Shown here: in pieces, positions 4,888 to 41,801 of the stretch
How positions within the stretch are numbered: position 1 is the first letter of the stretch
Layout of the letters: each line of letters begins with the position of its first letter
Assembly (NCBI GenBank): GCA_002348925.1
Contig: DEBV01000004.1
Location: 1-41,801 of the forward strand
Source of the DNA: Alphaproteobacteria bacterium UBA2947
Lineage (GTDB): Bacteria; Pseudomonadota; Alphaproteobacteria; Rs-D84
Length of the DNA: 41,801 bases
Direction of reading: 5' to 3'
Program-made: the position numbers and the translations under genes
The notes under the pieces: generated by a model
Database searches by the model: none
What the model was told of the DNA's origin: nothing
The model's input: only the letters and a program-made list of their open reading frames with translations

Positions 4888-4916
4888 TTTACAGCAAATC
4901 TTTTTTATGATAAAAT
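4888..4916 (+). promoter_or_regulatory. Sigma70-type promoter of the 4931 gene
   Basis: TTTACA (4888-4893), a 17-nt spacer, then TAAAAT (4911-4916) preceded by TG (TGaTAAAAT). The ATG at 4907 lies inside this promoter, which argues for the 4931 start. Confidence 0.5.
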
Positions 4917-4930
4917 TAAATGAAAGAGAG

Positions 4931-7663: not shown

Positions 7664-7930
7664 ATGGCACATAAGAAAGCAGGTTCTGCATCAACAAACG
7701 GACGCGATTCAGCTGGACGCAGATTGGGTGTTAAAAAATCTGGTGGCAGCCGCGTTATCCCAGGCAATATCATCATTCGTCAACGTGGAACTGCGGTTCA
7801 TCCTGGATTGAATGTTGGTATGGGTAAAGATCACACACTGTTTGCAAAAATCGCAGGTATTGTCACTTTCAAACGTGGCAACGGCGACAGAAAAACAGTT
7901 TCTGTTGTTCCAGAAACCGAAGCAAAATAA
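7664..7930 (+). CDS. rpmA: 50S ribosomal protein L27
   Basis: [25 protein letters not shown]...[22 protein letters not shown] is canonical L27. SD AAGGAG. Confidence 0.97.
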
Positions 7931-8030: not shown

Positions 8031-10583
8031 ATGAGAAGATTTTCGTTATTCTTTTTCATGGTTGCTTTCGCTGCAACAAACGTGTTTGCGGCAGAGTCTT
8101 CTATATCCCGCACAATTCCAAATAAAAATGCAAGTGATGCAACAGAACGCGTTGAAACCAGTACTGCAAAAAATCGCAGCGCGCGTACCGTTTCGCGTAC
8201 CGCACCAAATGCAACAAAATCGTCCACTAAAACGGTAAATGTTGTATCACGCAGTGTAAATAATCGTAAAAATAATACTGGTTCTTCGTTGGGGGCGGCA
8301 GTAAACACTGTTGGGCGCAGTGCACGTACTGATGCCGCCAGTATTAACAGCAGTCCAGCACTTCGTCGTGCAGGTGTGACATTGCGTGCGTCTACTGCGG
8401 AAGTTGGTGGTCGTGCAACAATTGGAAATACAGGCATTCAAACAGGTTCTAATATTGATGAACAAGTTCGTGGTGTTCAATCGCGTGCGTCTATATTTGG
8501 GGGCGGTAAAAAAACAAATATTACCGCGGAATCTTTGGCAAATGCAAAAGACGTTTTGGAAAAAACATCTGATTTGAATAACACTTGTCAGCAACAATAC
8601 AACGAATGTATGGACCAGTTTTGTGCGGTTGTAGATGCAAACCAAAAAAGATGTTCTTGTTCTGCGAATTTGTCTAAATATTCCAAAGTTCAAAAGGCGG
8701 TGGAAGATGCAAATGCCGAATTAAACGATGTTGCACAACGTATCCGTTATGTTGGTTTGTCTGCTGATGAAATTCGTGCGATTATGTCTGCAACAGAGGC
8801 GGAATTGGAAATGTCCAAGACAAAAGACAGTACGCAAACCCGTTCTATGTTGGACGACATTGCCGAAATGTTGAAAGACCCAACTTCTTCTACAACTTTG
8901 ACTTCGTCAACAACTGCGGATTCTTTGTTGGATATGGATTTGGATTTTTCATCTGATTCATCAGATTTGTTTTCGCTTGATATTTTCAACACATCAAACA
9001 CAGACATTTCTTCTAAACGTGGCAAGGCTCTTTATAACGAAGCAAAAAAACGTTGCAAAACTGTTTTGAATCGCTGCAAAGATGCAGGCGGTACGGAAAG
9101 TCAAATTTCTGGCAACTATGATTTGGCAATTGATAAAGATTGTGTTGCGTATGAACAGGGTTTGGAAAAATTAAATGATACATTGAAAAACAATGTGCGC
9201 AGTGCGAATTTAATGTTGCAAAAGGCGCGCCTTGCGGTGTTGCAAAATAAAAACCAATACGGAATCAAAGAATGTGTGGCTGCGCTGGAAAATTGTATGC
9301 TGGACGACATGGTTTGTGGCGATGATTACATAAAATGCGTAGATCCAACCAAGATGTTTATTGATGAAAATGGCAAGGTTATATTGGGACGCAATATTGC
9401 AAACATAACCAATTCAATGACTGCGTATAACAACACAAATATAAATGCAGATTTTATCAAAAGTTCGGTTGGTGATACAACTTGTGCTAACCATGATGGT
9501 GCGTGTGTTGTGAATTATTTACTGACGAAAATTGGAACAGGGGCAACCGTCAAAGACGGTGGGCTTTGCCGCGCAGTATTGGATAAATGTCAAGATTACA
9601 CATATGTTCAAAACGGCAAAACATCAACATATAATCCGTACAATGATGTTATTGTAAATTATATTCAACGCGCAATGGTAAATATAAAATCTGCACAATC
9701 AAAGATAATTTCGAATTATGCAGCGAATTGTATGTCTGATGTTCAAGATTGCTACAGCCAACAAAACAGCCAGATTACATCGTGGACATCGGCTGCAACG
9801 ATAGACAATATCTATAAAGTTTTAACAGGAACTTGCTACAGCACCGCGTTAACCTGTGGTTATGCGGTCTTTGCGTATGATAAAGAAATGGGCAATGCCA
9901 TTAGCGATACTTCATTGCCTGAATCTGATAAACAATTAAAACTTATAGACGGTATTTCACAAATGTTCTATCAAACCATGTTATGTCCGGATAATTCTGA
10001 ATATGTTACAGAAACTACAGCTGGTATGGTTAACGACAGGTGTGCATGCAAGGCAGGGTATGTGGTTTCTGGGGGACAGTGTGTGGTGTCTTGTCCGACT
10101 GATAAATCAAAGAAGCTTTTTGGAACATGTACTGCACAATGTCCAACTGGTATGATAGAAAAAAATAATGAATGTTTGTTGAGTGTACATTCAGAAATTA
10201 GTAATGCGTTTTATTTTGCAGAAGTTGAAGGTGTTTGTGTTGGTTGGGAAGGCAATTCTACAATATGTAATAAAGATTTTCCGATTGTAGCCAGCTTTGA
10301 ATATGGTGATGTTTATGGAAAAACGAAGGCGGAACATCGTACTAGAACTTCTTATGGTTATAATCATGTTCCTTTCGAAGAGGAATACTATGACTGTTAT
10401 GCTAAGATAATAGAATATCATTCAAAGAATAGTGTTGTATATGGGTTAGGAGGTGACTGGGTCTATGTGGGAGAGGCGGATTTTTATTACCAGTGCCCAG
10501 ATATAGCCGCAGGTTATTTTCAAGATGAAGACATGTTAGGACGTTATTTTGGAAAATATGGCACAATGGAATGGCCTGAATAA
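8031..10583 (+). CDS. Large secreted Cys-rich / coiled-coil protein, family member C (850 aa), unknown function
   Basis: Signal peptide MRRFSLFFFMVAFAATNVFA|AE. Arg/Val/Ser/Thr repeat region (TVSRTA, VVSRSV, TVGRSA, GVTLRAS, GVQSRAS). Cys motif CQQQYNECMDQFCAVVDANQKRCSC aligns with member A. The C-terminal part adds CACKAGYVVSGGQC-type Cys repeats and an aromatic-rich terminal domain. Confidence 0.9.
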   Translation: MRRFSLFFFMVAFAATNVFAAESSISRTIPNKNASDATERVETSTAKNRSARTVSRTAPNATKSSTKTVNVVSRSVNNRKNNTGSSLGAAVNTVGRSARTDAASINSSPALRRAGVTLRASTAEVGGRATIGNTGIQTGSNIDEQVRGVQSRASIFGGGKKTNITAESLANAKDVLEKTSDLNNTCQQQYNECMDQFCAVVDANQKRCSCSANLSKYSKVQKAVEDANAELNDVAQRIRYVGLSADEIRAIMSATEAELEMSKTKDSTQTRSMLDDIAEMLKDPTSSTTLTSSTTADSLLDMDLDFSSDSSDLFSLDIFNTSNTDISSKRGKALYNEAKKRCKTVLNRCKDAGGTESQISGNYDLAIDKDCVAYEQGLEKLNDTLKNNVRSANLMLQKARLAVLQNKNQYGIKECVAALENCMLDDMVCGDDYIKCVDPTKMFIDENGKVILGRNIANITNSMTAYNNTNINADFIKSSVGDTTCANHDGACVVNYLLTKIGTGATVKDGGLCRAVLDKCQDYTYVQNGKTSTYNPYNDVIVNYIQRAMVNIKSAQSKIISNYAANCMSDVQDCYSQQNSQITSWTSAATIDNIYKVLTGTCYSTALTCGYAVFAYDKEMGNAISDTSLPESDKQLKLIDGISQMFYQTMLCPDNSEYVTETTAGMVNDRCACKAGYVVSGGQCVVSCPTDKSKKLFGTCTAQCPTGMIEKNNECLLSVHSEISNAFYFAEVEGVCVGWEGNSTICNKDFPIVASFEYGDVYGKTKAEHRTRTSYGYNHVPFEEEYYDCYAKIIEYHSKNSVVYGLGGDWVYVGEADFYYQCPDIAAGYFQDEDMLGRYFGKYGTMEWPE

Positions 10584-13439: not shown

Positions 13440-14723
13440 TTATTTTTTCTTTAACCACGCATCAAATAATTTACCGCTTACAGTTTTAACATTGCCCCAA
13501 ACTGTCTTGGTGTCGTTTTTCAATTTTTCACCAAAAGAATTATCTATTTTTCCACCAATACCTTTTGCCAGTTCGTCTGCTTTGCCACCCAGATAGAAAA
13601 CAATAGCACCACACAATATCATTGTCATTGCTGAACCAACTGCATAAGTGTTATTGCTGTCTATGGATATTATGTTTGTTAATAATGCTGCACATATCGC
13701 AATAACTATGGCCAGCGATACAAAATAAATTGCCGCATTTATAAATGCAGATATAATATCTGATAATTTTTTTGTGTTAAATACTTTTAATAGACCAGAA
13801 AATATTTGTCCTGCATAATTTGTTTCTTTGCTGCCAGGCATAGATTCTGCCAATGCGGTAAAAGGCAACATCAAAAGTTTTAAAAACAAATCTGCGACAA
13901 CACCAAGCGTCATAAACGCATATTTGAAAATGCAACCGATAAACATAACCATGCAAACCAAACCGACGATAACCATAGTCGCACTGTGTCCAAAACCGTT
14001 AATCATCCATTCAAATGCAGAAGCAGTTGCGTGATAGAAATATACAGACAAACGTGATGGTAAACACATTATATTTGCCGCAGCGTCTGGGTTGATTAAA
14101 AGTTTATCTGATGTGTTTGCATTAACATACTGATGAATTGTTGCACAAGTATCTGGAATATTAACATTATAAGTTTGTGCAACAGCACCCAAAATAAAAT
14201 CAGATAAATACACACCAAGCGACAGAATAGGTGTTATAACCATTGTGAACAATTTTGCAGGTCCATAATTTAACACAATTACCCAAATTGCAATAGTTAT
14301 GCCTTTGATAAATATATCATATAAAACAGTTTTATAATCTGTTGATTCGCGAATCATTCTGTATGCTTCCAATGCTATCCAAAAAGCATACATAACAAAC
14401 AAAAACCATATAACGAATCGCACCAAAGATATTTGTAAAACATAATCGATTGAAGATAGGGCCTTCATAAATACCAGTCCCAGTTTTACTTCCACAGGAA
14501 CAAAATTTGTTGAATGCAGATTTGTTTGAAAAGTTTGTTGAAAATTTTTTACATCATCGGACAAATCATTATTGTAAGTTTTCATATTGTCCAAAGTCAT
14601 CCAGTTGCCGTATTCGCCAACATCACCATTTGGAACGTTGCCTGCCGCGTATGTTGCACCAACAAATGCAGTCACGCAAAAAATACAAACTAATAAAAAT
14701 TTCAAAATTTTACGAATCTGCAT
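13440..14723 (-). CDS. Polytopic membrane protein, paralogue 1 of 5 (VirB6/TrbL-like architecture, unverified)
   Basis: Start taken at ATG 14723 (MQIRKILKFLLVCIFCVTAFVGATYA signal peptide), 1 nt after the stop of the upstream gene. The track start at 14798 would overlap that gene by 74 nt. About 7 hydrophobic helices. Loop Cys pair (DTC...IMC). Tail ...KTVWGNVKTVSGKLFDAWLKKK. Confidence 0.85.
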   Translation of the reverse strand: MQIRKILKFLLVCIFCVTAFVGATYAAGNVPNGDVGEYGNWMTLDNMKTYNNDLSDDVKNFQQTFQTNLHSTNFVPVEVKLGLVFMKALSSIDYVLQISLVRFVIWFLFVMYAFWIALEAYRMIRESTDYKTVLYDIFIKGITIAIWVIVLNYGPAKLFTMVITPILSLGVYLSDFILGAVAQTYNVNIPDTCATIHQYVNANTSDKLLINPDAAANIMCLPSRLSVYFYHATASAFEWMINGFGHSATMVIVGLVCMVMFIGCIFKYAFMTLGVVADLFLKLLMLPFTALAESMPGSKETNYAGQIFSGLLKVFNTKKLSDIISAFINAAIYFVSLAIVIAICAALLTNIISIDSNNTYAVGSAMTMILCGAIVFYLGGKADELAKGIGGKIDNSFGEKLKNDTKTVWGNVKTVSGKLFDAWLKKK

Positions 14724-14724
14724 T

Positions 14725-16185
14725 TTATTTTTCCTTGTCCATTTTTTCGCGAACTTTTTCATATATTTTAACAGGCGCATTATAAGCGGTTTTTCCAAAG
14801 TCTTTTACCCATTGACCATAATCAAAAGATTCTTTGCCTTCTGAGCCTAATATTTCGTCTACCTTTGGTGACACAACCCAGAAGTACAAGAAGAATACGC
14901 CAAACATAAATAACAAGAATTCAAATCCGTCATCCATGAAATCAAAAGCCCCAGGATATCTTTTTTCAACAATTGTTTTCTGAGTTTTAAAACATGCTGT
15001 GAATTTTTCTTTGTCCATTTCACCGTCAATCAAAGACACTTTTTCACATGTCGAAAACACATTCATAACAGACATTGTTTTTGCGTCCATGTTTTGTTTT
15101 GTTACATCAGAAAGCAGTGGTGGCAATATGCTGGTAAAACCATCTTCGGGGCCTGGATAGAATTCATCAGCAGCAAAATAAACGACCGCATATATGATTA
15201 CTATTTTTAAACTGATTTTTAATATGCTAATTGCAGAATCTATCAACATTTTTATGCCAGAATTTAACAAGCCCTTGGCCAGTCCCCAAACTTGTTCAAA
15301 TGCAGCGGCTGCAATTAAAAGCGGCATAAATATAATGATGAAAACTAATTTAAAGAAAACAGTTAATATCTTAAAGAATAAATCAAACCCAATAATCAGG
15401 AACATTATAACCAAAGCAAATCCAGCCAGCCATGTAAACATACCACCGACTTTTTCATTTAAATCCAGCCATGAATAATTCATCAGGGCAAAACCACCAC
15501 CTGCACCAGCCAACATAACAGTATTTAAATTACCGACTACACACATAAATGGGTGTAATACAGGTGTAAATATATCTTCGTCTTTATCCGAAATTTCTGG
15601 GATTTCACATTTTGCACCGCTTATAACACCTGTTGCCATCATGGAAAGATTTGTTCCAATATACATTACAGGTGTCACAGTTATATTTGTGACGGCTTTC
15701 AATGTTGTTGTTCCGCTCCAACTTAACGCACCAATTAAAGCGCCCGCAATTAAAACGCGTACACCTGTTTTCCAAACTTTTTCAAACCATTTTTTAAAAT
15801 CGAGTTTTGGTTCATTATCTGTTAAATCTTTTATATCTTTGGATGCGGCTTGTTCGCGAAAGAAAGAAAGTGTGTGAAAAATTAAAAATATGCCAAACCC
15901 AACCGCCATCAGTATCCATAAATTATGAACAATGCCGTTCCAGAACATTTCTGTCGCACGGCCCAGTACAGCAAACAAATCACCAAGATATGCACAAAGG
16001 AAACAGCCATTAACAGATGCAGCATCACCGTTGTTGCTGCCTATTTGTTGCATAAACGCATCAACGCTGGTGTATGAAAGAGACGCACCACCCAAAGAAT
16101 GACTTAAATACCAAATGCCAATACCCAACGCGATTGCGCCCATCAAAAATTTCAAGCCGTTTAAGATAAGCCATTTTTTTATCAT
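14725..16185 (-). CDS. Polytopic membrane protein, paralogue 2 of 5
   Basis: Its ATG overlaps the upstream TGA (ATGA). N-terminal anchor, CFLC motif before the first core helix, loop Cys pair (AKCEIP...FMC), clustered TM helices, tail ...YGQWVKDFGK...KVREKMDKEK. Confidence 0.88.
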   Translation of the reverse strand: MIKKWLILNGLKFLMGAIALGIGIWYLSHSLGGASLSYTSVDAFMQQIGSNNGDAASVNGCFLCAYLGDLFAVLGRATEMFWNGIVHNLWILMAVGFGIFLIFHTLSFFREQAASKDIKDLTDNEPKLDFKKWFEKVWKTGVRVLIAGALIGALSWSGTTTLKAVTNITVTPVMYIGTNLSMMATGVISGAKCEIPEISDKDEDIFTPVLHPFMCVVGNLNTVMLAGAGGGFALMNYSWLDLNEKVGGMFTWLAGFALVIMFLIIGFDLFFKILTVFFKLVFIIIFMPLLIAAAAFEQVWGLAKGLLNSGIKMLIDSAISILKISLKIVIIYAVVYFAADEFYPGPEDGFTSILPPLLSDVTKQNMDAKTMSVMNVFSTCEKVSLIDGEMDKEKFTACFKTQKTIVEKRYPGAFDFMDDGFEFLLFMFGVFFLYFWVVSPKVDEILGSEGKESFDYGQWVKDFGKTAYNAPVKIYEKVREKMDKEK

Positions 16186-17366
16186 TTATCTTTCTTGTCT
16201 TTATCTGCGCTTTCAGGGTTAATAATTATCTTTGCCATTTCTTTGGTTTTATTCGCAATAATTTTTGTTAATTGAAATACATTTTCTCCCATTTCTTTGG
16301 AAAGTTGATTTTCCTGTTTTATATTAAACACAGATAATATTTTTTCGGTCACTTTTGGAACTTGATCTGCAATATAATTTATAACATACACCAACACGAT
16401 TGCACCAGCAAAAGTTATCTGCATCGCGCTGGAATTTTCCAAATCAAAATCAAACAAAGATTCACTTGAATTGTGTATTGAATCCGCATCTACACCATTT
16501 GCATCTAAAAAGCCACGAATAATTAACATAATAACAGTGTATGTTAAAATTGTAGACACCACAGATACAATGGCGTTTATAAGTTTTTTTATTTGACCAC
16601 CACCAAGATTAGAACCTAAATTTTTCATCCAACCAGGTGCATCTGCTGCGCCCTTGAATATAAACAACACAAGCGATAACGGGAAAAAGAACGCAAACAT
16701 TGCCATTGCGAAAATAACATCCATAAAACAGAAAGAATATTTAATAAATAATTTTGCAAAATTATAAGTCAAAAATATTCCAATAAAACAAATAATGATA
16801 TGTTTTACAAGCGCACCAATACCAAGCAGTGCTTTAAGGTCAAACGCTGCGTCTATAATGCCAATACCGATTTTTATGTAAACTTGGAAGTTTGCAACAG
16901 AAGTTTCCAGTATTTGCATTATTGTGTCGCGTAATTCTGGATTAAAGAAACCGTTGTTGCCCAATTGAAGTGCGTTTTCGTATGCTGGTATCGCGTAATC
17001 TGCTGGCAACATCGCTTTTGAATATTGCAAAGTCATTACAGCCACTGGTTCAAAAGTAATTGTTGAAATAAATCGCGGGACTATTAAACCCATGCTTAAC
17101 AACGACAACGCAATCAAAGATTTTACCAACAATGGACGGATTGCTTTGTCAAACAAAGAATCTTTTGCGCCTGTTTTGATGTTCTGCCATACGATGTTTA
17201 ATATGTAAAATGCCAGCAATACACAGAATATAAGAACGCTGAAAATGCAAAGGCGTTGATATGCGGCGGCGGCAGTGTTCGAAATAATGGCGAACAGATT
17301 GTCAAACACAGGACATGTCCAACATTGAACACCAGAATCTATTAAAGAGTTTGCCAATTCTTGCAT
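16182..17366 (-). CDS. Polytopic membrane protein, paralogue 3 of 5
   Basis: Starts 3 nt after the upstream stop. CWTCPVF motif at residues 15-21 followed by a TM helix. Clustered TM helices. Lys/Asp-rich tail. Ends with TGA. Confidence 0.88.
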   Translation of the reverse strand: MQELANSLIDSGVQCWTCPVFDNLFAIISNTAAAAYQRLCIFSVLIFCVLLAFYILNIVWQNIKTGAKDSLFDKAIRPLLVKSLIALSLLSMGLIVPRFISTITFEPVAVMTLQYSKAMLPADYAIPAYENALQLGNNGFFNPELRDTIMQILETSVANFQVYIKIGIGIIDAAFDLKALLGIGALVKHIIICFIGIFLTYNFAKLFIKYSFCFMDVIFAMAMFAFFFPLSLVLFIFKGAADAPGWMKNLGSNLGGGQIKKLINAIVSVVSTILTYTVIMLIIRGFLDANGVDADSIHNSSESLFDFDLENSSAMQITFAGAIVLVYVINYIADQVPKVTEKILSVFNIKQENQLSKEMGENVFQLTKIIANKTKEMAKIIINPESADKDKKDK

Positions 17367-17369
17367 TTT

Positions 17370-18668
17370 TTATTTCTTTAGTTTTCCTGCAGTTTCCAAA
17401 ATCTTTTTTATTGCCCCAGGTGTCGCTTTCGCTTTGCCCCACATAACTTTTGCATCACCTGTTACTTTGTTATATAACCAGTGGTCTTTGGTTGTATACA
17501 TATCTAATCTTTGACGGGTCATGTCGAAAATGTTGTGCATTAAAAAGAAAGTTAGCAATGCAGATATCCACAATATAGAATGTTGGCCAAAATTCATAGC
17601 GCTGTTTGTGATAGATGGCACATTAGAAGTTGAAACACCGCCAGCCGCAACAACAAATACTGACGAAGACCAATTAAACAGTGCGCGAACCAGTGCAATA
17701 TTTACACACAATATAAACGCACATGCAATCATCGTGATAATAAGATTTTTCAACGCATCTATTATTTGTGAAAACACAGGCAATATATCAAACCATTTGT
17801 CTGATTTTTTTGCGACCCACGCCAACACATTAAACGGATACATTATAAGCGATAAACAAAAATCAAATATGGCCTGAATTATCAAAAGTGCCATAAACAC
17901 ATTGGCTGATATAAACGCGAACAGCAACAATATCCCGCTGACTATGTTTAATAAATCTTCGCCACCATGTGGTATCATTGTCATTAAACCGCGCAATCCA
18001 GTTTTAAGAAAATCAAAACCGTATTTTATAACTTTGTTGTTTTCTTGCGAGATTATATAGACAGGTTTTACCAAGAAATCACAACTGCGTTTTGAAATCC
18101 ATCCAGATTCTTCAATGGAAGCAGGACACGCAGGTGCGTCGCTTGCATCGATTGTCGATTTGTTAATATTTACCAAAATTTGTTCTGTATAAATAGACCC
18201 GAATTCCAAAAATGGGTTAACCAGCCATTCTGTCACATATACAGGTTTTATTTGCAACAACAATACCCCCGCGACAATCGCACGAATACATGGTTTCAAA
18301 ACATTTTCTGATATTTTCCAAGGGTCCGCTTTGCCATCAACCATTTCGCCACCGTCTGAAAATCCAAGAAACGACAGCCAATCTTTTGGAAAGTGCATCT
18401 TAATCAAATACAAGCAAATATAAAAAGCCAGAAACGCATAGATGAACAAATATACGATTCCGTCGCCTTTGCCCACAAAAAAGTTATACAAAGATGTTGC
18501 GATATTCATCATTGTTTCCAAGACCAGTGGAACAAATGGTGCCAAATTATATGCGTCTAATATGTTTGCATGTGCAGGCAATACAAAAAAAGCACACAGC
18601 ACAAACGCACTGAACAATATTCTGGTGCACGATAACAAGCGTGATAACAGGGCTTTTTTTATATACAT
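17370..18668 (-). CDS. Polytopic membrane protein, paralogue 4 of 5 (first gene of the operon)
   Basis: AAAGAGAGA precedes the ATG. Signal peptide ...FVLCAFFVLPAHA|NILD. Loop Cys pair (PACPAS...RSC). Tail ...KVMWGKAKATPGAIKKILETAGKLKK. Confidence 0.88.
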   Translation of the reverse strand: MYIKKALLSRLLSCTRILFSAFVLCAFFVLPAHANILDAYNLAPFVPLVLETMMNIATSLYNFFVGKGDGIVYLFIYAFLAFYICLYLIKMHFPKDWLSFLGFSDGGEMVDGKADPWKISENVLKPCIRAIVAGVLLLQIKPVYVTEWLVNPFLEFGSIYTEQILVNINKSTIDASDAPACPASIEESGWISKRSCDFLVKPVYIISQENNKVIKYGFDFLKTGLRGLMTMIPHGGEDLLNIVSGILLLFAFISANVFMALLIIQAIFDFCLSLIMYPFNVLAWVAKKSDKWFDILPVFSQIIDALKNLIITMIACAFILCVNIALVRALFNWSSSVFVVAAGGVSTSNVPSITNSAMNFGQHSILWISALLTFFLMHNIFDMTRQRLDMYTTKDHWLYNKVTGDAKVMWGKAKATPGAIKKILETAGKLKK

Positions 18669-18695
18669 TCTCTCTTTTTATTTCTTATTTACTGA

Positions 18696-18704
18696 ATTAT
18701 ATCA
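18696..18704 (-). promoter_or_regulatory. Extended -10 promoter element for the four-gene membrane-protein operon
   Basis: The reverse complement reads TGaTATAAT, ~28 nt upstream of the ATG at 18668. Confidence 0.45.
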
Positions 18705-18720
18705 CATTTAGAATAATTTA

Positions 18721-18729
18721 TGGTATAAT
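18721..18729 (+). promoter_or_regulatory. Extended -10 promoter element for the divergent fifth paralogue
   Basis: TGgTATAAT (18721-18729). The ATG at 18737 is 7 nt downstream with no SD, so the mRNA may be leaderless. Confidence 0.4.
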
Positions 18730-18736
18730 TAAAATT

Positions 18737-20029
18737 ATGAAAGCGTTAAAAAATTTTTGGTTGTGGTTTGTTGCACTGTTGCCATTTTCAGCATGGGGTG
18801 TCGCGCCATTTGTATTGGGGGGCGCAGCGGTAGGCGTTGGTATCATCGGGGTTTCAATATGGCGAACCGCTGCACCTGTCGATATGGCAAGCGCGCTTGA
18901 TTTCTTTACTTCGTGTTGGACATGTCAGATTTTTTCAGATGTTATGATTTCTATGTCTAATTTATTGCCAAAGGTTTATGCGGCACTGGGTCAGGTTATA
19001 ATACCAATGTCTGCGACTTTGTTGGCGATATTTATTGCGTGGAATTTATTGTCAAATGCGCTGAATAACAAGATGGAAAGTGGTTCTAAAATTATGGGGA
19101 ATTTTGGAACACATATTTTCAGATTAAGTGTTTTAGTTATATTGTTGGCATTGCCGTTGCCGCGGTTGATAACAAATGTGTTTATTGAACCTGCGCTGGT
19201 TGTTGGTACATCTTTTGATTATGTTGTTTCGGATAATAATAAATTTTCTGAATGTATGGTTGCAACAGCCATCGCAGATCCTGTATCTGTTTCTGCGGAT
19301 GCATCTGCATATGGGGCGTTTTCGCCAAAATTGCGACACCAACTTGCATGCGAAGTCGCAAATGTTCACCAGATAACAGGTCTTGGTATGAGTATTGGTT
19401 GGACAATAATGAATATGGCTTTTAATGCAGACTATATGCATAAAATATTGGCGAATATCCCAATCTTTCCAAATATACCGATTTTCTTTGTGGGACTTTT
19501 GATATTGGCGTTATATTTTTATGCGCTTTTGCCGATACCATTATATTTCTTGGAAGTGTTTGTAAAATTGGCTCTGGATTTAGTGATGTTACCACTGATG
19601 TTGATGTCTTGGATGTTTGATGATGAAAACTTTGCGATTTTCCCAAAAGGTGGCAAAACGATTCGCCAAATGATAGATGATGTAATCAAAGCTGTGGTTG
19701 GAATTGCACTGACAGTGGTATTTCTAGCATTTTCGATAATGTTTCTTAATGCAGCGTTTGGCAGTATCGAAGGTGTTAATATTTTGCAACAAGCAATTGT
19801 GAATAACGATTCGAAAATACTGATGGACGGCTTGCTTTTCCACAATGGCAGCATTATCACAGTGGTCTTGATGGGTATCTTTTTGGCGATGTTTATGACG
19901 ATGATACCGCAACTGACAAATATGTTGTTCAAGATACAAATATCAGATAAATACTATCAGACAGCAAAAAAAGACTTGGATATAATGTGGGAAAACATGA
20001 AAAAATGGGCGTCCGCAATAAAAAAATAA
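18737..20029 (+). CDS. Polytopic membrane protein, paralogue 5 of 5 (divergent)
   Basis: Start taken at ATG 18737 (MKALKNFWLWFVALLPFSA...). The track start at 18641 is a GTG inside the opposite-strand gene. CWTCQIF motif (18914-18925 encodes CWTC). Loop Cys pair (SEC...LAC). Tail ...DLDIMWENMKKWASAIKK. Confidence 0.85.
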   Translation: MKALKNFWLWFVALLPFSAWGVAPFVLGGAAVGVGIIGVSIWRTAAPVDMASALDFFTSCWTCQIFSDVMISMSNLLPKVYAALGQVIIPMSATLLAIFIAWNLLSNALNNKMESGSKIMGNFGTHIFRLSVLVILLALPLPRLITNVFIEPALVVGTSFDYVVSDNNKFSECMVATAIADPVSVSADASAYGAFSPKLRHQLACEVANVHQITGLGMSIGWTIMNMAFNADYMHKILANIPIFPNIPIFFVGLLILALYFYALLPIPLYFLEVFVKLALDLVMLPLMLMSWMFDDENFAIFPKGGKTIRQMIDDVIKAVVGIALTVVFLAFSIMFLNAAFGSIEGVNILQQAIVNNDSKILMDGLLFHNGSIITVVLMGIFLAMFMTMIPQLTNMLFKIQISDKYYQTAKKDLDIMWENMKKWASAIKK

Positions 20030-35945: not shown

Positions 35946-36045
35946 TTTCATAACCTTTTTTAAATACTTCGGGCATTGTATGTTATATTTTATGTAAAAT
36001 CAAGTTTTTTTTACAGGGACATGGCAATTTTATCACATAATATGC

Positions 36046-36075
36046 TTGACCGTTTTTTTTGTTTTTTGGTATAAT
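36046..36075 (+). promoter_or_regulatory. Sigma70-type promoter of giant surface protein gene 1
   Basis: TTGACC (36046-36051), an 18-nt spacer G-T8-G-T6-GG, then TATAAT (36070-36075) with TGg (extended -10). The block is duplicated at 39354-39383. Confidence 0.6.
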
Positions 36076-36203
36076 GAAAATATTAGTAAGGGGAAAAAGG
36101 CAAAATTTGCGGGAAGTCTGCGCGTTTTAAGTGATTTAATTTACGGTGTAAGAAACGTATTTTCTGCATATGCAGTGCATGTAAAAAGGAAGGATGTATA
36201 AAA

Positions 36204-39200
36204 ATGTTAAAAATAAGAAATTTCTTTCATGTAATTACTGGCGCATTTTTCGCATTATGTTTGATGTCTGTGTCGGGTACAGCATTGGCATATACGATTA
36301 CGTTGAATGCTTCTTCTGCAACAAGCCAAGGAACATCTTCTCTTGATTCTACTCCTGTTGGTGCGATGGTTCAGGGCCAATCAATGTCAACAACCGAACA
36401 CCCAATAACGTTGCCAACAAGAACAGGTTGGACATTCCAGGGATACTATAATGAGGGGCTGGATACAACGTATATTAGTTCCAGTGGTTATATAACTACA
36501 GATGGTATAAACACGGCAAAAAGTTTAACTGGAAATACAACATGGTATGCCCTTTGGAGAAGAGATAGCAATTGTTCGGCTGGAACATATTGGACGGGCA
36601 GCAGTTGTGCTACATGTACAACGGGATATTACTGTCCAAATTCTACGATTGTGTACAATCATACTACCAACGGGGCAGGAAGATACGCGTGTACAAGTTT
36701 TCGTTCAAACACAATAACAAATGGTACAGGAAAAACGTCAAAAAGTGACTGTTTGTGCAAAGCCGGTATGTATTTAAGTGGCTCTACATGTACTACAACT
36801 TCGGCTGGGTATTACAGTGGCGTAGACAACTCACAGACAGAATGTTCTGCTGGATACTACAGTACAAGTGGTGCAAGCAGTTGCAGTCCTGTATCTGCTG
36901 GTTACTATACCACAGGTGGCGGAACATCTGCGACACCAACTGCCAATGGTAATGGATGTATAAGTACTTACAGTTGTGGAAAGGTCAGCGCTGGATATTT
37001 CAGCACTGGTGGTGCAACAAAGTCTGCCCCTAATAGCACTGCTGGTGGTGAAAGCGGTACTGGCAGCAATGGCTGTATCAGTGGTCAAACATGTGGGGCA
37101 GTATCTGCGGGTTATTACAACAATGGTGGCGGAATAAAGGCCGAACCACAAACGAGCGGGGAAGGTTGCATAAGTGGTAAATCTTGTGGAATGCTAAGTG
37201 CTGGATATTTCAGTACAGGCGGTGCGATAAGTGCTACCCCAAACGCAACAGTTGGTGGTGCGAATGCTAGTGGCATGAATGGATGTGTCATTGGTAGATG
37301 TGGATTGGTGTCTGCTGGGTATTACAGCACAGGTGGTGGAACATCCGCAACACCAAAAAATGCTGATGAAGGATGTTTGCATATTTATAGTTGTGGAAAG
37401 GTATCAACGGGATATTACAGCAATGGTGGTGGAACATCTGCGACACCAACCAGCAGCGGTGATTGCGTAAGTGGCCGTACCTGTGGTTATTGCAACACTT
37501 GGCGCACAGACACGACAACCGCAGATGCTGGTGGTACAGGAACATCGTCTTGTTTATGTAAAGCGGGTATGTACCTGAACAGCAGTAATGTCTGTACAAC
37601 AACAGAAACAGGATATTACAGTGGTATAAGCAATGACAGAAGCGCATGCAGCACTTGGCGTTCAAACACAACTACGACAAGTACAGGTTCGACCAGTTCG
37701 GCCGCTTGTGTATGTAAAGCTGGTATGTATTTAAGTGGTACTACATGTACTAATGCTTCTGCTGGGTATTACAGTGGTGTAAGTAATACTCAGACAATAT
37801 GTAGTGCTGGTACTTATAGTACAGGTGGTGCAAGTGCATGTACAGATTGTAATTCAACTGGTTATTCTGGTTATACAACTGCTTCTACTGGTGCATCGGC
37901 TGAAAATATGTGTAAAAGAGACTTTACACTTTGGAGATTTGGTGCAACAGGCACGCTTACAACAACTGCAGGGTCAGTTGAATCTGGCGGTAGTGGGAAT
38001 GACAAATTAGTTTGTACCAAGGGTCAAAACTGTTATATGCCTGATTCTAGTAAATTAAGTTTGGATGGTTGGACATTTTTGGGAGGTTGGTCACAACAAA
38101 GTCAGCCGAGTTCTTCACCGTGTACTGCTAGTTTTACGGCAAATACATCTGTGTCTACTAGTGGTGCTGATTCTTTGTTCCCATGTGCAAAACCAACGGT
38201 ATTCACAATACCTGTAACCGTTATTGCCAATGGTAATACTGTGAAAAAAGGAACACAAAGTTTGTGTTATCAATTGTATAGAAAAGACAGTACTAATGAG
38301 CCATCTACGACAGGTACACTTGTTGCCAAGGTATATCTTAACCCTAATGATCCTGAACCTTGTACAGAACTTGGGGCTGAAGTGACAAGCAGTACACAAA
38401 TAACCATACCAACATGGCCAGGGCATACTTTCAAAGGTTTTTATACTAATTCAACTGGTGGTTCGAATGCAATTTCCAATACAGGATATGTCCAACAGGG
38501 CTTCTTGGAAGGTTTCTATACGTCGAATTATTTTTCAGATCCTTATTCAACCAATGCGACAAACCACCAATTGTATGCACAATTTGAAACATCAAATGTG
38601 CAATGTGCGGCGGGTACGTTCTTGGTGGGGTTGTATGGTGACTGTATGACGTGTTCTGCTGGATCTTACTGTCCAGGTGGTACCTATACAAGTGAAGACC
38701 AAGAAAATGTTGGTATAACTGTTTGTGGTAAAAATACATACAGTGGCGAAGGTGCGGCATCATGTACAGCATGTGCAAGTGGTTATGGTATATCTGATAA
38801 TGGAACTAATGCCCAATATCATAACAGTAAATATCAGTGTACTGCATCTATCACTTTGAACAAGAATGGTGGAAGCGGTGATATAACAGTTTATTCAAAT
38901 CCTGTCGGTGGTACGACCAATGCAGCGATTACTTGCCATCAAGACGAAGTTTGCAGTTTCCCAAGCACATCTGGTTTGACACAAGATGGATATGGGTTTA
39001 CTGGCAAGTGGTCAAAAACAGAAAATTGTTCAGACGGTGGTGCTACAAGCTTTACGAACCCAACTGGTACATACTATGCCTGTAAGACGGCAAATCCAAT
39101 TACAATCAAATGGATTGATGTTGGAACGGCTGGCTCTGGATTTACAGCGGTTTCTGGTGAAGCCAATGCTTATACATCGATAGTAAGCTTTAATGGCAAC

Positions 39201-39269
39201 ATCACAACCCCACAGGCTGGTTTCTCAAAAACAGGGATGACATTCTTGGGGTGGAAGTTCGAAAAATAA
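36204..39269 (+). CDS. Giant secreted/surface repeat protein 1 (1021 aa): Listeria/Bacteroides-type repeats plus Cys-rich ephrin-receptor-like repeats
   Basis: SD AAAGGAAGGA. Signal peptide ...AFFALCLMSVSGTALA|YT. Flg_new/InlB-B-like units (LPTRTGWTFQGYYN...WYALW; WPGHTFKGFYT...LYAQF; QDGYGFTGKW; KTGMTFLGWKF). CxAGxYxxGxxCxxCxxGYYC units. Six [VL]S[AT]GY[YF]SxGG[GA] units. Confidence 0.92.
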   Translation: MLKIRNFFHVITGAFFALCLMSVSGTALAYTITLNASSATSQGTSSLDSTPVGAMVQGQSMSTTEHPITLPTRTGWTFQGYYNEGLDTTYISSSGYITTDGINTAKSLTGNTTWYALWRRDSNCSAGTYWTGSSCATCTTGYYCPNSTIVYNHTTNGAGRYACTSFRSNTITNGTGKTSKSDCLCKAGMYLSGSTCTTTSAGYYSGVDNSQTECSAGYYSTSGASSCSPVSAGYYTTGGGTSATPTANGNGCISTYSCGKVSAGYFSTGGATKSAPNSTAGGESGTGSNGCISGQTCGAVSAGYYNNGGGIKAEPQTSGEGCISGKSCGMLSAGYFSTGGAISATPNATVGGANASGMNGCVIGRCGLVSAGYYSTGGGTSATPKNADEGCLHIYSCGKVSTGYYSNGGGTSATPTSSGDCVSGRTCGYCNTWRTDTTTADAGGTGTSSCLCKAGMYLNSSNVCTTTETGYYSGISNDRSACSTWRSNTTTTSTGSTSSAACVCKAGMYLSGTTCTNASAGYYSGVSNTQTICSAGTYSTGGASACTDCNSTGYSGYTTASTGASAENMCKRDFTLWRFGATGTLTTTAGSVESGGSGNDKLVCTKGQNCYMPDSSKLSLDGWTFLGGWSQQSQPSSSPCTASFTANTSVSTSGADSLFPCAKPTVFTIPVTVIANGNTVKKGTQSLCYQLYRKDSTNEPSTTGTLVAKVYLNPNDPEPCTELGAEVTSSTQITIPTWPGHTFKGFYTNSTGGSNAISNTGYVQQGFLEGFYTSNYFSDPYSTNATNHQLYAQFETSNVQCAAGTFLVGLYGDCMTCSAGSYCPGGTYTSEDQENVGITVCGKNTYSGEGAASCTACASGYGISDNGTNAQYHNSKYQCTASITLNKNGGSGDITVYSNPVGGTTNAAITCHQDEVCSFPSTSGLTQDGYGFTGKWSKTENCSDGGATSFTNPTGTYYACKTANPITIKWIDVGTAGSGFTAVSGEANAYTSIVSFNGNITTPQAGFSKTGMTFLGWKFEK
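36243..36638 (+). repeat. 396-nt near-identical segment shared by the two giant genes (copy 1)
   Basis: Base-by-base comparison with 39454-39849 shows the same length and only scattered substitutions. The remainder of the two genes is far more diverged. Confidence 0.85.
36882..37493 (+). repeat. In-frame degenerate tandem coding repeats (six units of ~26-38 aa)
   Basis: Repeating C-x-S-G-x-x-CG-x-[VL]S[AT]GY[YF]S-x-GG[GA]-x-[SK]A-x-P read from the translation. Confidence 0.8.
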
Positions 39270-39291
39270 AATTATAAATTCGTTTAAAAAA

Positions 39292-39317
39292 AGTCGTGGT
39301 TTGCCACGACTTTTTTT
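39292..39317 (+). terminator. Intrinsic terminator
   Basis: AGTCGTGG(39292-39299) TTTG CCACGACT(39304-39311) followed by T7. Confidence 0.85.
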
Positions 39318-39353
39318 GGCATAAAATTATAACATTTTTATCACATAATATGC

Positions 39354-39383
39354 TTGACCGTTTTTTTTGTTTTTTTGTATAAT
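39354..39383 (+). promoter_or_regulatory. Sigma70-type promoter of giant surface protein gene 2
   Basis: TTGACC (39354-39359), an 18-nt spacer G-T8-G-T7-G, then TATAAT (39378-39383). Near-identical copy of 36046-36075. Confidence 0.6.
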
Positions 39384-39414
39384 GAAAATATGTAAAAAAA
39401 GGGAAGGCTCGCAA

Positions 39415-41801
39415 ATGGTGGGAAAACGGGGATTTTTTAACTTTATAAAAAGTGCATTTTTCGCATTGTGTTTGGTGTTTGTGTCGGGTACAGCATTGGC
39501 ATATACGATTACGTTGAATGCTTCTTCTGCAACAAGCCAAGGAACATCTTCTCTTGATTCTACTCCTGTTGGTGCGATGGTTCAGGGCCAATCAATGTCA
39601 ACAACCGAACACCCAATAACGCTGCCAACAAGAACAGGTTGGACATTCCAGGGATACTATAATGATGGGATTGATACAACGTATATTAATTCCAGTGGTT
39701 ATATAACTACAGATGGTATAAACACGGCAAAAAGTTTAACTGGAAATACGACATGGTACGCCCTTTGGAAAAGAAATAGCAATTGTTCGGCTGGAACATA
39801 TTGGACGGGCAGTGCTTGTGCCACATGTACTGCGGGTTATTACTGTCCATCTTCAACAATAGTATATAGCTACATGTCTAGTGGAGGAAGAAAAGTTTGT
39901 GCTGCGGGTAAATACAGCAGCAGTGGTGCAACAAGTTGCAGCAATGTAAGTGAAGGTTATCATGCAACAGGATGTAATGCATCGAATGAAGCATGTACAG
40001 GGCAAGCAGCGAACACATATACGGTGACACTTAATAAAAATGCGACTGATGCAACGGCAGGTACTACATCCGTGACCGCAACATATAACAGTGCGATGCC
40101 AACACCAATTACAAAGCCATCACGCACAGGATATACTTTTGCGGGTTATTATGACACATCTGCAACAACAGGCGGAACACAATATTATACCTCTACTGGT
40201 GCCAGTGCGCGTAGTTGGAACAAAACATCAAATACAACATTGTATGCCCGCTGGATTTCTCTTAAAACACTTACTCTTGACAAGGACGGCGGAAGCGGTG
40301 GTACGAGTTATTTGTACTTTAACAGCACAGGAGTTTATTCAAATAATACTGGCACCACAGCGGTTAGTTGGCCTATATCTGTACCATCAAAAACAGGTTA
40401 TACATTTGGTGGCTATCTTTATCAGCCTAGCAGTAGTAGCACTGGCAGTACAGTGATAAATTCCGCTGGTAACGAAGCCGCAGGAGGTTATTTCATTGCT
40501 GCTTTAACTGGTGGCAGTGGAGATTTTGCAAACGACCTTACCTTAACTGCCAAATGGACTGCGAAAAGCATATCCTGTGATCCTGGGTATTATTTAAAAG
40601 CGAACAGTGAAAATTGTAACACCCTATGTCCAATGGGACAATATTGTGAAGGCGGAACGTTTGAATATGACGGTACTGCAAAAGGTGTGACAGGCAATAT
40701 AGCCGCTGGATACTACAGCTATAGTGGCGGTATAAGCGCGACCCCAACTGGATCAGGTAACGGTTGTGTTGGTGGTTCCAGTTGTGGAATAGTGTCCGCT
40801 GGATATTTCTGTGAAGGAGGCTGTTGGAGTGCGACACCAAATGACACCATTGGTGGTGCGACTGCCAATGGTATGAACGGTTGTATTGCGGGTAAATGCG
40901 GAAAGGTAAGTGCTGGATACTACAGCAGTGGTGGTGGAACATCTGCAACACCAACTGAACGTGGCAATGGTTGTTTGGCTACAAACAGTCTCAATTGCGG
41001 ACCAGTAGCTGCAGGTAGGTACAGTACAGGTGGTGCAACAACTGCTCAAGGTACAGGTGCTGTTAGTATTGGTTATTACAGCAGTGGTGGTGCAACAATA
41101 TCAACACCAGCCAGCACCAGTTGTGTAGGTTCTGGCAATACATGCGGTGCATGCAGCGCTTGGCGCACAAACACAACAACAAGTGGTAGCGGTGGTACAG
41201 GAACCTCGTCTTGTTTATGTAAAGCTGGTACGTATTTAAGTGGTACTACATGTGTAGCAACAGAAGTAGGATATTTCAGTGGTGTAAACAACTCTCAATT
41301 GAAGTGTGACGATTATATTCCAAATACAACTACGACAGGTACGGGAAAAACATCAACAAATGATTGTTTTTGCAAAGGCGGAATGTATATGGGCAGTGGA
41401 CATTGTGTCAACACTTCCGCTGGGTATTACAGTGGTGTAAGCGATACACAGACAGCATGTGACGTAGATACGTACAGCACTGGTGGTGCAAGCAGTTGTA
41501 CGCCTGTAAGCACAGGTTATCATACAACAGGATGTAATTCTTCAAGTAAGGCATGTACAGGGCAAGCAGCGAACACATACACAGTGACGCTTGATAAAAA
41601 TGCATCTGATGCAACGGCTGGTACTACGTCCAAAACAGCAACCTATGGCAGTGCTATGCCAACACCGATTACATTGCCATCGCGTACAGGATATACTTTT
41701 GCGGGATATTATGACACATCTGCAACAACAGGCGGAACGCAATATTATACCTCTACTGGTGCTAGTGCACGTAGTTGGAACAAAACATCAAATACAACAT
41801 T
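39415..41801 (+). CDS. Giant secreted/surface repeat protein 2 (partial, >795 aa, runs off the window)
   Basis: I translated frame 1 by hand from ATG 39415 to 41801 and found no stop. It is missing from the ORF track because it is open-ended. Signal peptide MVGKRGFFNFIKSAFFALCLVFVSGTALA|YT. Same repeat types as gene 1 (PSRTGYTFAGYYD...LYARW; CSAGTYWTGSACATCTAGYYCPSS; SAGYYSSGGGTSATP). Confidence 0.9.
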   Translation, partial: MVGKRGFFNFIKSAFFALCLVFVSGTALAYTITLNASSATSQGTSSLDSTPVGAMVQGQSMSTTEHPITLPTRTGWTFQGYYNDGIDTTYINSSGYITTDGINTAKSLTGNTTWYALWKRNSNCSAGTYWTGSACATCTAGYYCPSSTIVYSYMSSGGRKVCAAGKYSSSGATSCSNVSEGYHATGCNASNEACTGQAANTYTVTLNKNATDATAGTTSVTATYNSAMPTPITKPSRTGYTFAGYYDTSATTGGTQYYTSTGASARSWNKTSNTTLYARWISLKTLTLDKDGGSGGTSYLYFNSTGVYSNNTGTTAVSWPISVPSKTGYTFGGYLYQPSSSSTGSTVINSAGNEAAGGYFIAALTGGSGDFANDLTLTAKWTAKSISCDPGYYLKANSENCNTLCPMGQYCEGGTFEYDGTAKGVTGNIAAGYYSYSGGISATPTGSGNGCVGGSSCGIVSAGYFCEGGCWSATPNDTIGGATANGMNGCIAGKCGKVSAGYYSSGGGTSATPTERGNGCLATNSLNCGPVAAGRYSTGGATTAQGTGAVSIGYYSSGGATISTPASTSCVGSGNTCGACSAWRTNTTTSGSGGTGTSSCLCKAGTYLSGTTCVATEVGYFSGVNNSQLKCDDYIPNTTTTGTGKTSTNDCFCKGGMYMGSGHCVNTSAGYYSGVSDTQTACDVDTYSTGGASSCTPVSTGYHTTGCNSSSKACTGQAANTYTVTLDKNASDATAGTTSKTATYGSAMPTPITLPSRTGYTFAGYYDTSATTGGTQYYTSTGASARSWNKTSNTT
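39454..39849 (+). repeat. 396-nt near-identical segment shared by the two giant genes (copy 2)
   Basis: See 36243-36638. Confidence 0.85.
39915..40241 (+). repeat. Internal direct repeat of giant gene 2 (copy 1)
   Basis: Aligns with 41475-41801 at an offset of 1560 nt, e.g. GGTTATCAT.CAACAGGATGTAAT...GCATGTACAGGGCAAGCAGCGAACACATA and ACAGGATATACTTTTGCGGG.TATTATGACACATCTGCAACAACAGGCGGAAC.CAATATTATACCTCTACTGGTGC. Confidence 0.8.
41475..41801 (+). repeat. Internal direct repeat of giant gene 2 (copy 2, truncated by window end)
   Basis: See 39915-40241. Confidence 0.8.

Follow-up and report, generated by a model that had tools for sequence, protein, structure and literature searches.

Proteins with Flg_new repeats are viewed as adhesin-like and are enriched in host-associated microbes (PMC9723798), and the same repeat is described as a stalk domain of fibrillar adhesins, which are built of a stalk, an adhesive tip and an anchor (PMC9210967). 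The ephrin-receptor-like repeat PF07699 (Ephrin_rec_like) is said to have arisen in ancient eukaryotes and to be rare in bacteria (PMC6993872). Here we consider two tandem genes at the end of a 41,801-nt window from Alphaproteobacteria bacterium UBA2947 (contig DEBV01000004.1; by the window we mean the whole stretch of DNA analysed): A, a complete open reading frame (ORF) of 1021 aa at 36204–39269, and B, with the ATG at 39415, extending to the window end at 41801. Both genes and all their features given below are on the plus strand. A is a modular repeat protein, presumably exported, and we think it probable that A and B are strain-variable fibrillar surface proteins of an adhesin-like or coat-like type. 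While the general class, Flg_new repeat proteins of gut microbes, is an ordinary one, A and B are an unusual variant of it.

With the Flg_new adhesin-like proteins of gut bacteria and archaea (PF09479, TIGR02543; structure 2y5p) the two proteins share the units themselves, as B exceeds both curated cut-offs and unit 1 of A and B and units 2–4 of B match a profile of 687 units, and the animal-gut habitat (PMC9723798). They differ in that Flg_new units are a minority in A and B and are interleaved with Cys-rich repeats, in that several units of A are divergent, with added Cys pairs and scores below the Pfam thresholds, and in that A ends in a truncated unit (...GWKFEK). In common with fibrillar adhesins (PMC9210967) are the long stalk-type arrays including Flg_new, the biased composition and the fast evolution; in contrast to them, A has no recognised adhesive domain or anchor, and A and B are Gram-negative proteins whose stalks, predicted to be disulfide-rich, belong to a eukaryote-type class. 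The Ephrin_rec_like and TNFR-like repeats of ELAPOR1 (9vqm), Mst1 (8tx1, 8wa2) and the cysteine-rich domain (CRD) of Eph receptors have the same spacing, C-x2-G-x-Y-x5-8-C-x2-C-x2-G-x-Y, and probably the same role of a repeated extracellular rod element, whereas A and B are bacterial, have no kinase, transmembrane segment or ligand-binding domain, and gave no close eukaryotic homologue in a search of limited sensitivity. From type V autotransporters A differs in its C-terminal 145 residues, which form a Flg_new-like module with no Pfam match to a beta-barrel translocator. Giardia variant surface proteins (VSPs) and ciliate surface antigens resemble A and B in their periodic, Cys-rich repeats, in a variable middle between conserved ends, and in forming a multigene family with variable alleles. 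Unlike Giardia VSPs, A and B lack a CXXC-rich VSP signature, a transmembrane segment and a conserved VSP tail, and no sequence relationship and no sign of switching was seen.

The position of the genes is conserved in ruminant-gut Alphaproteobacteria. The order parC, in some cases a GT61 gene, rpmG on the minus strand and then the surface-protein gene is observed in the window, in the related loci L052 and L053 (protein P0004), in L059 (P0003) and in L060 (P0009); in L052 and L060, rpsU can also be seen upstream of parC. ParC is 95–99.8% identical between these genomes, and RpmG of the window is 100% identical to that of L052. The surface proteins at the site align in patches only, at approximately 36–40% identity: 68% of A aligns with P0004 (best high-scoring segment pair, HSP, 37%) and 34% with P0009 (best HSP 36%). 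P0003 is only 75% identical to P0004, the respective ParC proteins being 99.8% identical. The site downstream of parC–rpmG is hence strain-hypervariable between near-identical flanks. The elements kept across the alleles are the signal peptide and the C-terminal ~145 residues, ending in ...TFLGWKF plus 2–4 residues; the –35 hexamer and the 18-nt promoter spacer are also retained in L052, L059 and L060. The window carries two tandem copies of the gene, and the relatives carry one.

All named homologues of A are proteins of metagenome-assembled genomes (MAGs) labelled 'Alphaproteobacteria bacterium', and the related loci were found in MAGs of rumen and gut origin (RUG, RGIG, Ca. Enterousia). Contigs with 95–98% identical ParC belong to a collection of rumen metagenomes (record label STEW19) and to an NCBI Alphaproteobacteria MAG. 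As for the habitat check proposed in an earlier note on this DNA, all homologues whose source is recorded derive from metagenomes of the gut or rumen. Some of the relatives have F5/8 type C carbohydrate-binding domains or BspA-type leucine-rich repeats (LRRs). Two ORFs of rumen proteobacterial MAGs, at 89–17332 in L003 (5747 aa) and at 7874–20323 in L012 (4149 aa), mix Flg_new and Cys-rich repeats, with LRR-like repeats too in L012. The GT61 glycosyltransferase gene is situated between parC and rpmG in L052 (3558–4730), L053 (3174–4346) and L059 (1946–3145), that is, next to the P0004 and P0003 alleles; neither the window nor L060 has it. The GT61 group includes the EGF-domain O-GlcNAc transferase, and the enzyme may glycosylate the adjacent surface protein.

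At the protein level A and B are approximately 90% identical in the first 150 residues, and beyond that form a mosaic at 30–56% identity; by these alignments we regard them as paralogues. A tract of 142 nt is identical in DNA (36269–36410 in A, 39480–39621 in B); on one side of it the first 60 nt are 65% identical, and on the other the genes are divergent beyond approximately nt 420. Such an identical tract with diverged flanks resembles a patch left by gene conversion. B also has an internal duplication of 300 nt (39898–40197 and 41458–41757, 83% identical; repeat family D4). Tandem Repeats Finder reports no tandem DNA repeats within the coding regions, and thus the protein repeats are old at the DNA level.

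Both N-termini have a positive n-region and a hydrophobic core followed by ALA|YT, which is compatible with a signal peptidase I site; in A the predicted signal peptide comprises residues 1–29 (36204–36290, ...GTALA|YT). The signal peptides were judged by eye from the sequence, with no predictor used, and the AlphaFold2 (AF2) model of A has a helix at residues 2–23. A lipoprotein signal in A was rejected, since F-A-L ahead of Cys19 is not a lipobox. The ORFs and the N-termini bear out the claim of the earlier note that there are two tandem repeat proteins with signal peptides, although the word 'giant' used there overstates their size, given 1021 aa in A and an incomplete B. Cys accounts for 5.2% of the residues of A and 4.4% of those of B, versus 0–2.1% in 13 other window ORFs checked, and Thr, Ser and Gly each make up 13–17% of A and B. 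Mature A has 52 Cys residues; an even count is what one would expect if all of them were paired.

The Flg_new units were delineated with a custom profile of 687 units from unrelated Flg_new proteins. On A it yields two clear units (residues 28–119 and 730–795) and three marginal ones. Unit 1 of A (36285–36560, residues 28–119) has an independent E-value (i-E) of 5.4e-14 over model positions 2–83, with no Pfam match and low AF2 confidence. The region 37986–38594 contains two divergent Flg_new-like units, at residues 595–651 (marginal, i-E 0.0036) and 708–797 (clear, 1.3e-5 at 730–795), and residues 721–764 match the InlB B-repeat 2y5p weakly in sequence (E 0.071). As for the beta-grasp-like fold of the InlB B-repeat, the AF2 predicted local distance difference test (pLDDT) is approximately 30 for residues 30–120 and 560–790 of A, and 2y5p is not among the Foldseek matches. 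In B, unit 1 (39496–39771, residues 28–119; i-E 2.2e-14) overlaps the 142-nt tract shared with A, units 2 and 3 (40009–40563, residues 199–282 and 285–383) have values of 5.2e-38 and 1.6e-9, and unit 4 (41569–41799, residues 719–795; i-E 1e-31), which is cut by the window end, represents the second copy of the 300-nt duplication.

In the curated models, B scores 42.9 bits against the cut-off of 27 for PF09479 (best stretch residues 202–278) and 27.9 against 20.95 for TIGR02543, whereas A remains below the PF09479 cut-off at 15.6–16.5 bits, with a partial match at residues 728–763. Thus, the Flg_new/InlB B-repeat units claimed in the earlier note hold for B by both cut-offs and for A by the custom profile only; in the profile check that it suggested, B passes for PF09479, while A (15.6 bits) does not, and neither protein passes for PF07699. 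All of the sequences quoted there are present: LPTRTGWTFQGYYN...WYALW at residues 70–118 of A and B, PSRTGYTFAGYYD...LYARW at residues 235–280 of B, WPGHTFKGFYT...LYAQF at residues 738–794 of A, the Cys units CSAGTYWTGSSCATCTTGYYCPNS (A, 124–147) and CAAGTFLVGLYGDCMTCSAGSYCPGGTY (A, 801–828), and the runs of CG-x-VSAGYYSTGGGTSATP, with six units in A and five in B. We also observed that residues 199–283 of B (40009–40263) are 72–80% identical to units of MAG proteins from Clostridia, Ruminococcus, Ruminiclostridium and Enterousia (comparison loci L003, L005, L006, L009 and L023), being much closer to those than the units of A are to the units of B. This similarity suggests either module exchange across phyla or very strong constraint.

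The canonical Cys unit in A and B has the pattern C-x2-G-x-Y...C-x2-C-x2-G-x-Y. In A there are three blocks. Block 1 (36564–36884, residues 121–227; C-x2-G-x-Y ... C-x2-C-x2-G-Y-Y) aligns with canonical units of the family, and no Pfam Cys-repeat family is significant for it, the listed matches having E of 0.12 or worse. Block 2 (37464–37916, residues 421–571) comprises two C..WR..TTT...C.CKAGMYLSG.TC...GYYSG units and CSAGTYSTGGASAC; its best Pfam match is TNFR_ELAPOR1_6th (PF23091), at 18.4 bits versus the cut-off of 33.2. The most canonical units are in block 3 (38598–38837, residues 799–878; AF2 pLDDT 78–91), with 17.1 versus 29.4 for TNFR_c6 (PF00020) and 12.2 versus 23.1 for Ephrin_rec_like; the second-best PF07699 segment in A scores 8.1 bits. 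The Cys-rich block of B (41125–41568, residues 571–718) is of the CxCK[AG]G.Y type and 49% identical to A (298–627); it has no Pfam match, and B as a whole has no PF07699 match and scores of 13.1 and 11.7 for PF00020 and PF23091. In many of the units of A and B, one Cys of the CxxC pair or both are gone. Assigning these Cys units directly to a Pfam family was rejected, as all the scores are below the cut-offs.

PF07699 is matched by 11 of 29 homologues of A (best E 1.6e-46), and other homologues match PF23091, PF07562 and PF00020. With the Cys units chosen by motif pattern, a profile of 34 family units found ELAPOR1 (8.8e-13), the Chlamydomonas mastigoneme protein Mst1 (2.4e-9) and, weakly, TNF receptors in the PDB; a profile of the 14 units of A and B alone gave no match. 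The units of A and B align with the canonical family units with an hhalign probability of 97.7%. By sequence comparison, therefore, the Cys units of A and B can be assigned to the ephrin-receptor-like/TNFR-like class via family homology only. Thus, the similar claim of the earlier note stands by way of the family (11 of 29 homologues and the unit profile) and does not stand for A and B taken alone, where the scores are below the cut-offs and the fold matches are non-significant.

Between the canonical blocks there is a different repeat. A has six C-x4-5-C-G-x-VSAGYYSTGGGTSATP units (36879–37493, residues 226–430), alternating between approximately 31 and 38–39 aa; in the DNA (repeat family D1) the start-to-start distances are 93, 117, 93, 114 and 93 nt. 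In B, one canonical Cys unit is followed by five VSAGYY-type units (40570–41154, residues 386–580). The VSAGYYSTGGGTSATP repeats as such span residues 228–415 of A and 427–565 of B, and no Pfam model matches them. The canonical ladder of Cys residues is no longer present in the VSAGYY unit. AF2 predicts the units to be serial beta-hairpins, with pLDDT mostly 80–95 in residues 210–440 of A, and with pLDDT above 90 over the first 90 residues and a predicted TM score (pTM) of 0.70 in a model of residues 383–640 of B. Among 1.84 billion representative proteins, 23 clusters match the VSAGYYSTGGGTSATP region at E≤1e-3, including proteins of 2360–3041 aa, one of which, P0155, has approximately 40 such units together with F5/8 type C domains. 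We consider the VSAGYYSTGGGTSATP unit, on these searches, to be a rare, derived, family-specific repeat unrecognised by Pfam.

The conserved C-terminal module of A (38835–39266, residues 878–1021) consists of a Cys-bearing Flg_new-like unit and a truncated last unit ending in ...TFLGWKFEK. The C-termini of P0003, P0004, P0009 and P0020 align with this module (best HSP to P0004: 53% over 148 residues), which has AF2 pLDDT of 80–95 and is marginal by the custom Flg_new profile (0.013 and 0.0019). The alleles A (39260–39266), P0003, P0004, P0009 and P0020 all close with a shortened unit of Flg_new type that has an invariant GWKF plus 2–4 polar residues, and the terminal GWKF may be a putative sorting or docking motif. 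Other members, among them the 5747-aa ORF of L003, terminate in a second C-terminal module that recurs across the family (...LxVKIG...YSVVNDxQ). A polymorphic toxin was rejected, since it is the C-terminus that is conserved and a search for toxin domains found none.

A and B each have a promoter module: 36025–36083 for A, with TTGACC, an 18-nt T-rich spacer and TATAAT at 36046–36075, the –10 hexamer being preceded by TG, and 39333–39391 for B, with TTGACC, 18 nt and TATAAT at 39354–39383. Both sites match 11 of 12 consensus positions, and the 59-nt modules are 97% identical to each other. The 23-mer promoter core occurs exactly twice within the window, with zero occurrences expected, and a scan of JGI metagenomes for it gave no match. 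The spacers themselves (36052–36069 and 39360–39377) are nearly all T (T8-G-T6/7). Between the genes, 3' of A, there is an intrinsic terminator hairpin followed by a T-run (39284–39319; –19.3 kcal/mol, z-score –5.25, none of 200 shuffles as good), which was found by folding energy, a simple scan having missed it. A and B are thus predicted to be separate transcription units, each with its own strong sigma-70-type promoter. The 5' untranslated region (UTR) of A is approximately 128 nt, about 97 nt longer than that of B; an Rfam search with it gave no match and folding gave no signal (z-score –0.42), so a regulatory RNA there was rejected. Phase variation via the promoter spacer length is unsupported as well, the length being 18 nt in five of the five copies compared, with no variation. 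No inverted repeats that would point to an invertible element were found.

The window also encodes a Gram-negative-type ParC, which passes the Gram-negative equivalog cut-off, as well as valS, a PBP1A gene, mraY–ftsW–murG and PagL. Because of PagL and the Gram-negative-type parC, we may conclude that the cell has an outer membrane. In such a ruminant-gut alphaproteobacterium, A and B would be exported by the Sec pathway, and in the periplasm the signal peptides would be cleaved and disulfides formed. The Cys-rich beta-hairpin repeats, both the ephrin-receptor-like/TNFR-like ones and those of the C-x5-C-G-x-VSAGYYSTGGGTSATP type, would then form stiff rod segments spacing out the Flg_new domains, resulting in a fibrillar molecule, adhesin-like or coat-like. 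The C-terminal ~145-residue module most likely mediates outer-membrane export or attachment. The variable middle would be the exposed part, diversifying fast from strain to strain by module shuffling and recombination. An exposed fibril or coat under diversifying selection fits the Sec signal, the presumably paired Cys, the rod-type repeats, the Flg_new units and the conserved ends with a fast-changing middle; in solved eukaryotic proteins, the matching Cys repeats act as extracellular stalks. The adhesin role that the earlier note had suggested can reasonably be inferred from the architecture and from the Flg_new literature (PMC9723798, PMC9210967), although no adhesive domain or anchor was found.

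Several observations weigh against this interpretation. In A, Pfam, NCBIfam and the sequence reveal neither an adhesive domain of a known kind nor an anchor or a signal for export across the outer membrane, namely no autotransporter barrel, LPXTG, SLH domain, type IX secretion system C-terminal domain or C-terminal hydrophobic segment; for A and the visible part of B there is no Pfam or NCBIfam match other than Flg_new. Both proteins are below every Pfam Cys-family cut-off, even by segment at E≤10. AF2 is unconfident on most Flg_new-like units of A. Foldseek against the PDB with the models of whole A and of residues 383–640 of B gave nothing at E≤1e-3; the top matches, non-significant and with low TM scores, do all belong to the ephrin-receptor-like/TNFR-like class, being ELAPOR1 (E 7.9e-3), the mastigoneme, the EphB6/EphA2 CRD, the CaSR CRD and TNFRs (DR5/DR6). 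B is incomplete, being still open after 795 codons at the window end. Finally, the rapid divergence is also compatible with non-adhesion roles.

A and B could instead constitute a variable surface coat, functionally similar to an S-layer, or a decoy against phages, protist grazing or host immunity, with paralogues switched by recombination and target binding being secondary. We consider this unlikely, yet the strong consensus promoter at the site and the ~128-nt 5' UTR of A, the high Thr, Ser and Gly in both proteins, the conserved ends with a variable middle, and the GT61 gene adjoining the surface gene in some alleles agree with it, as does the 142-nt A/B tract with 65% identical flanks, resembling gene conversion. 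If the paralogues were generally switched, one would not expect a single copy in L052, and the constant 18-nt spacer of the five copies, the zero inverted repeats and the lack of tandem DNA repeats in the coding regions point neither to phase variation by spacer length nor to an invertible element; no S-layer anchoring domain was found either.

The same absence of an anchor or outer-membrane export signal next to a signal peptide would be expected if A and B were soluble, secreted or periplasmic proteins that bind polysaccharide or cell-wall material and are not displayed on the surface. The F5/8 type C carbohydrate-binding domains of relatives and the Amidase_3 gene adjoining the gene of P0002 also agree with this possibility. 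However, extreme strain divergence with conserved termini is unusual for periplasmic housekeeping binders, and the size and repeat architecture are like those of surface fibrils, hence we find such a function doubtful. The least probable variant, slightly below the previous one, is the receptor mimicry proposed in the earlier note, for which we see no support on the present results. The Cys repeats would then have been acquired from the animal host or gut protists and would bind ephrins or TNF-family cytokines: the profile of Cys units does resemble ELAPOR1 and Mst1, and TNFRs weakly, and homologues match PF07699 (described as a eukaryotic invention seldom seen in bacteria, PMC6993872), PF00020, PF07562 and PF23091, but a search with the Cys region (8000 candidates, word filter; of limited sensitivity, as P0001 was missed) gave 9 matches at E≤1e-3, all from metagenomes and no eukaryotic protein among them, the units of A and B are degenerate and under every Pfam cut-off, the VSAGYY unit has no canonical Cys ladder, there is no Ephrin_lbd or other ligand-binding domain and no complete TNFR cysteine-rich domain, and the repeats of the solved eukaryotic matches are structural stalk elements.

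Beyond the strain-variable fibrillar surface protein that we prefer, one may imagine a broader scenario, which we regard as quite speculative and improbable. The site downstream of parC–rpmG would be the main strain-variable coat of a clade of ruminant-gut Alphaproteobacteria, a counterpart of the variant surface proteins of protozoa; the Cys repeats would be of eukaryotic, possibly protist, origin and include a new type, the paralogues would exchange via identical 5' tracts, and the C-terminal '...GWKF' signal would direct export or anchoring.

As regards the rest of the window, its start contains the 3' end of the 23S rRNA (1–242) and the 5S rRNA (340–454). Three secreted ORFs on the plus strand (2680–4824, 4907–7033 and 8031–10583; 708–850 aa, 3.5–3.8% Cys) have no meaningful Pfam or NCBIfam match and apparently have the motif C..Y.ECMD.FC....RCSC in common; they may form a second Cys-rich exported family. 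The region 13440–20029 comprises five ORFs of 394–486 aa, four of them on the minus strand, with no Pfam match, and has lower GC (~0.35) and reversed GC skew. A phage-derived origin of A was rejected: its model had no match at E≤1e-3 in a viral Foldseek library, and the neighbours are housekeeping genes. Exact-protein look-ups with A and with ParC gave no match, and a protein-database homologue search with B returned no full-length product of B.

The hypervariable site offers a marker, usable as it stands, to type strains and to study surface selection in an uncultured rumen lineage. The C-terminal module carries no known signal and points to an undescribed route of export or anchoring. The VSAGYYSTGGGTSATP unit is new to Pfam and confined to about two dozen protein clusters of 1.84 billion representatives. 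As the family of A and B shows, PF07699-type repeats have been used repeatedly in gut bacteria, and a gut alphaproteobacterial surface family leans heavily on Cys repeats that are treated in the literature as essentially eukaryotic (PMC6993872).

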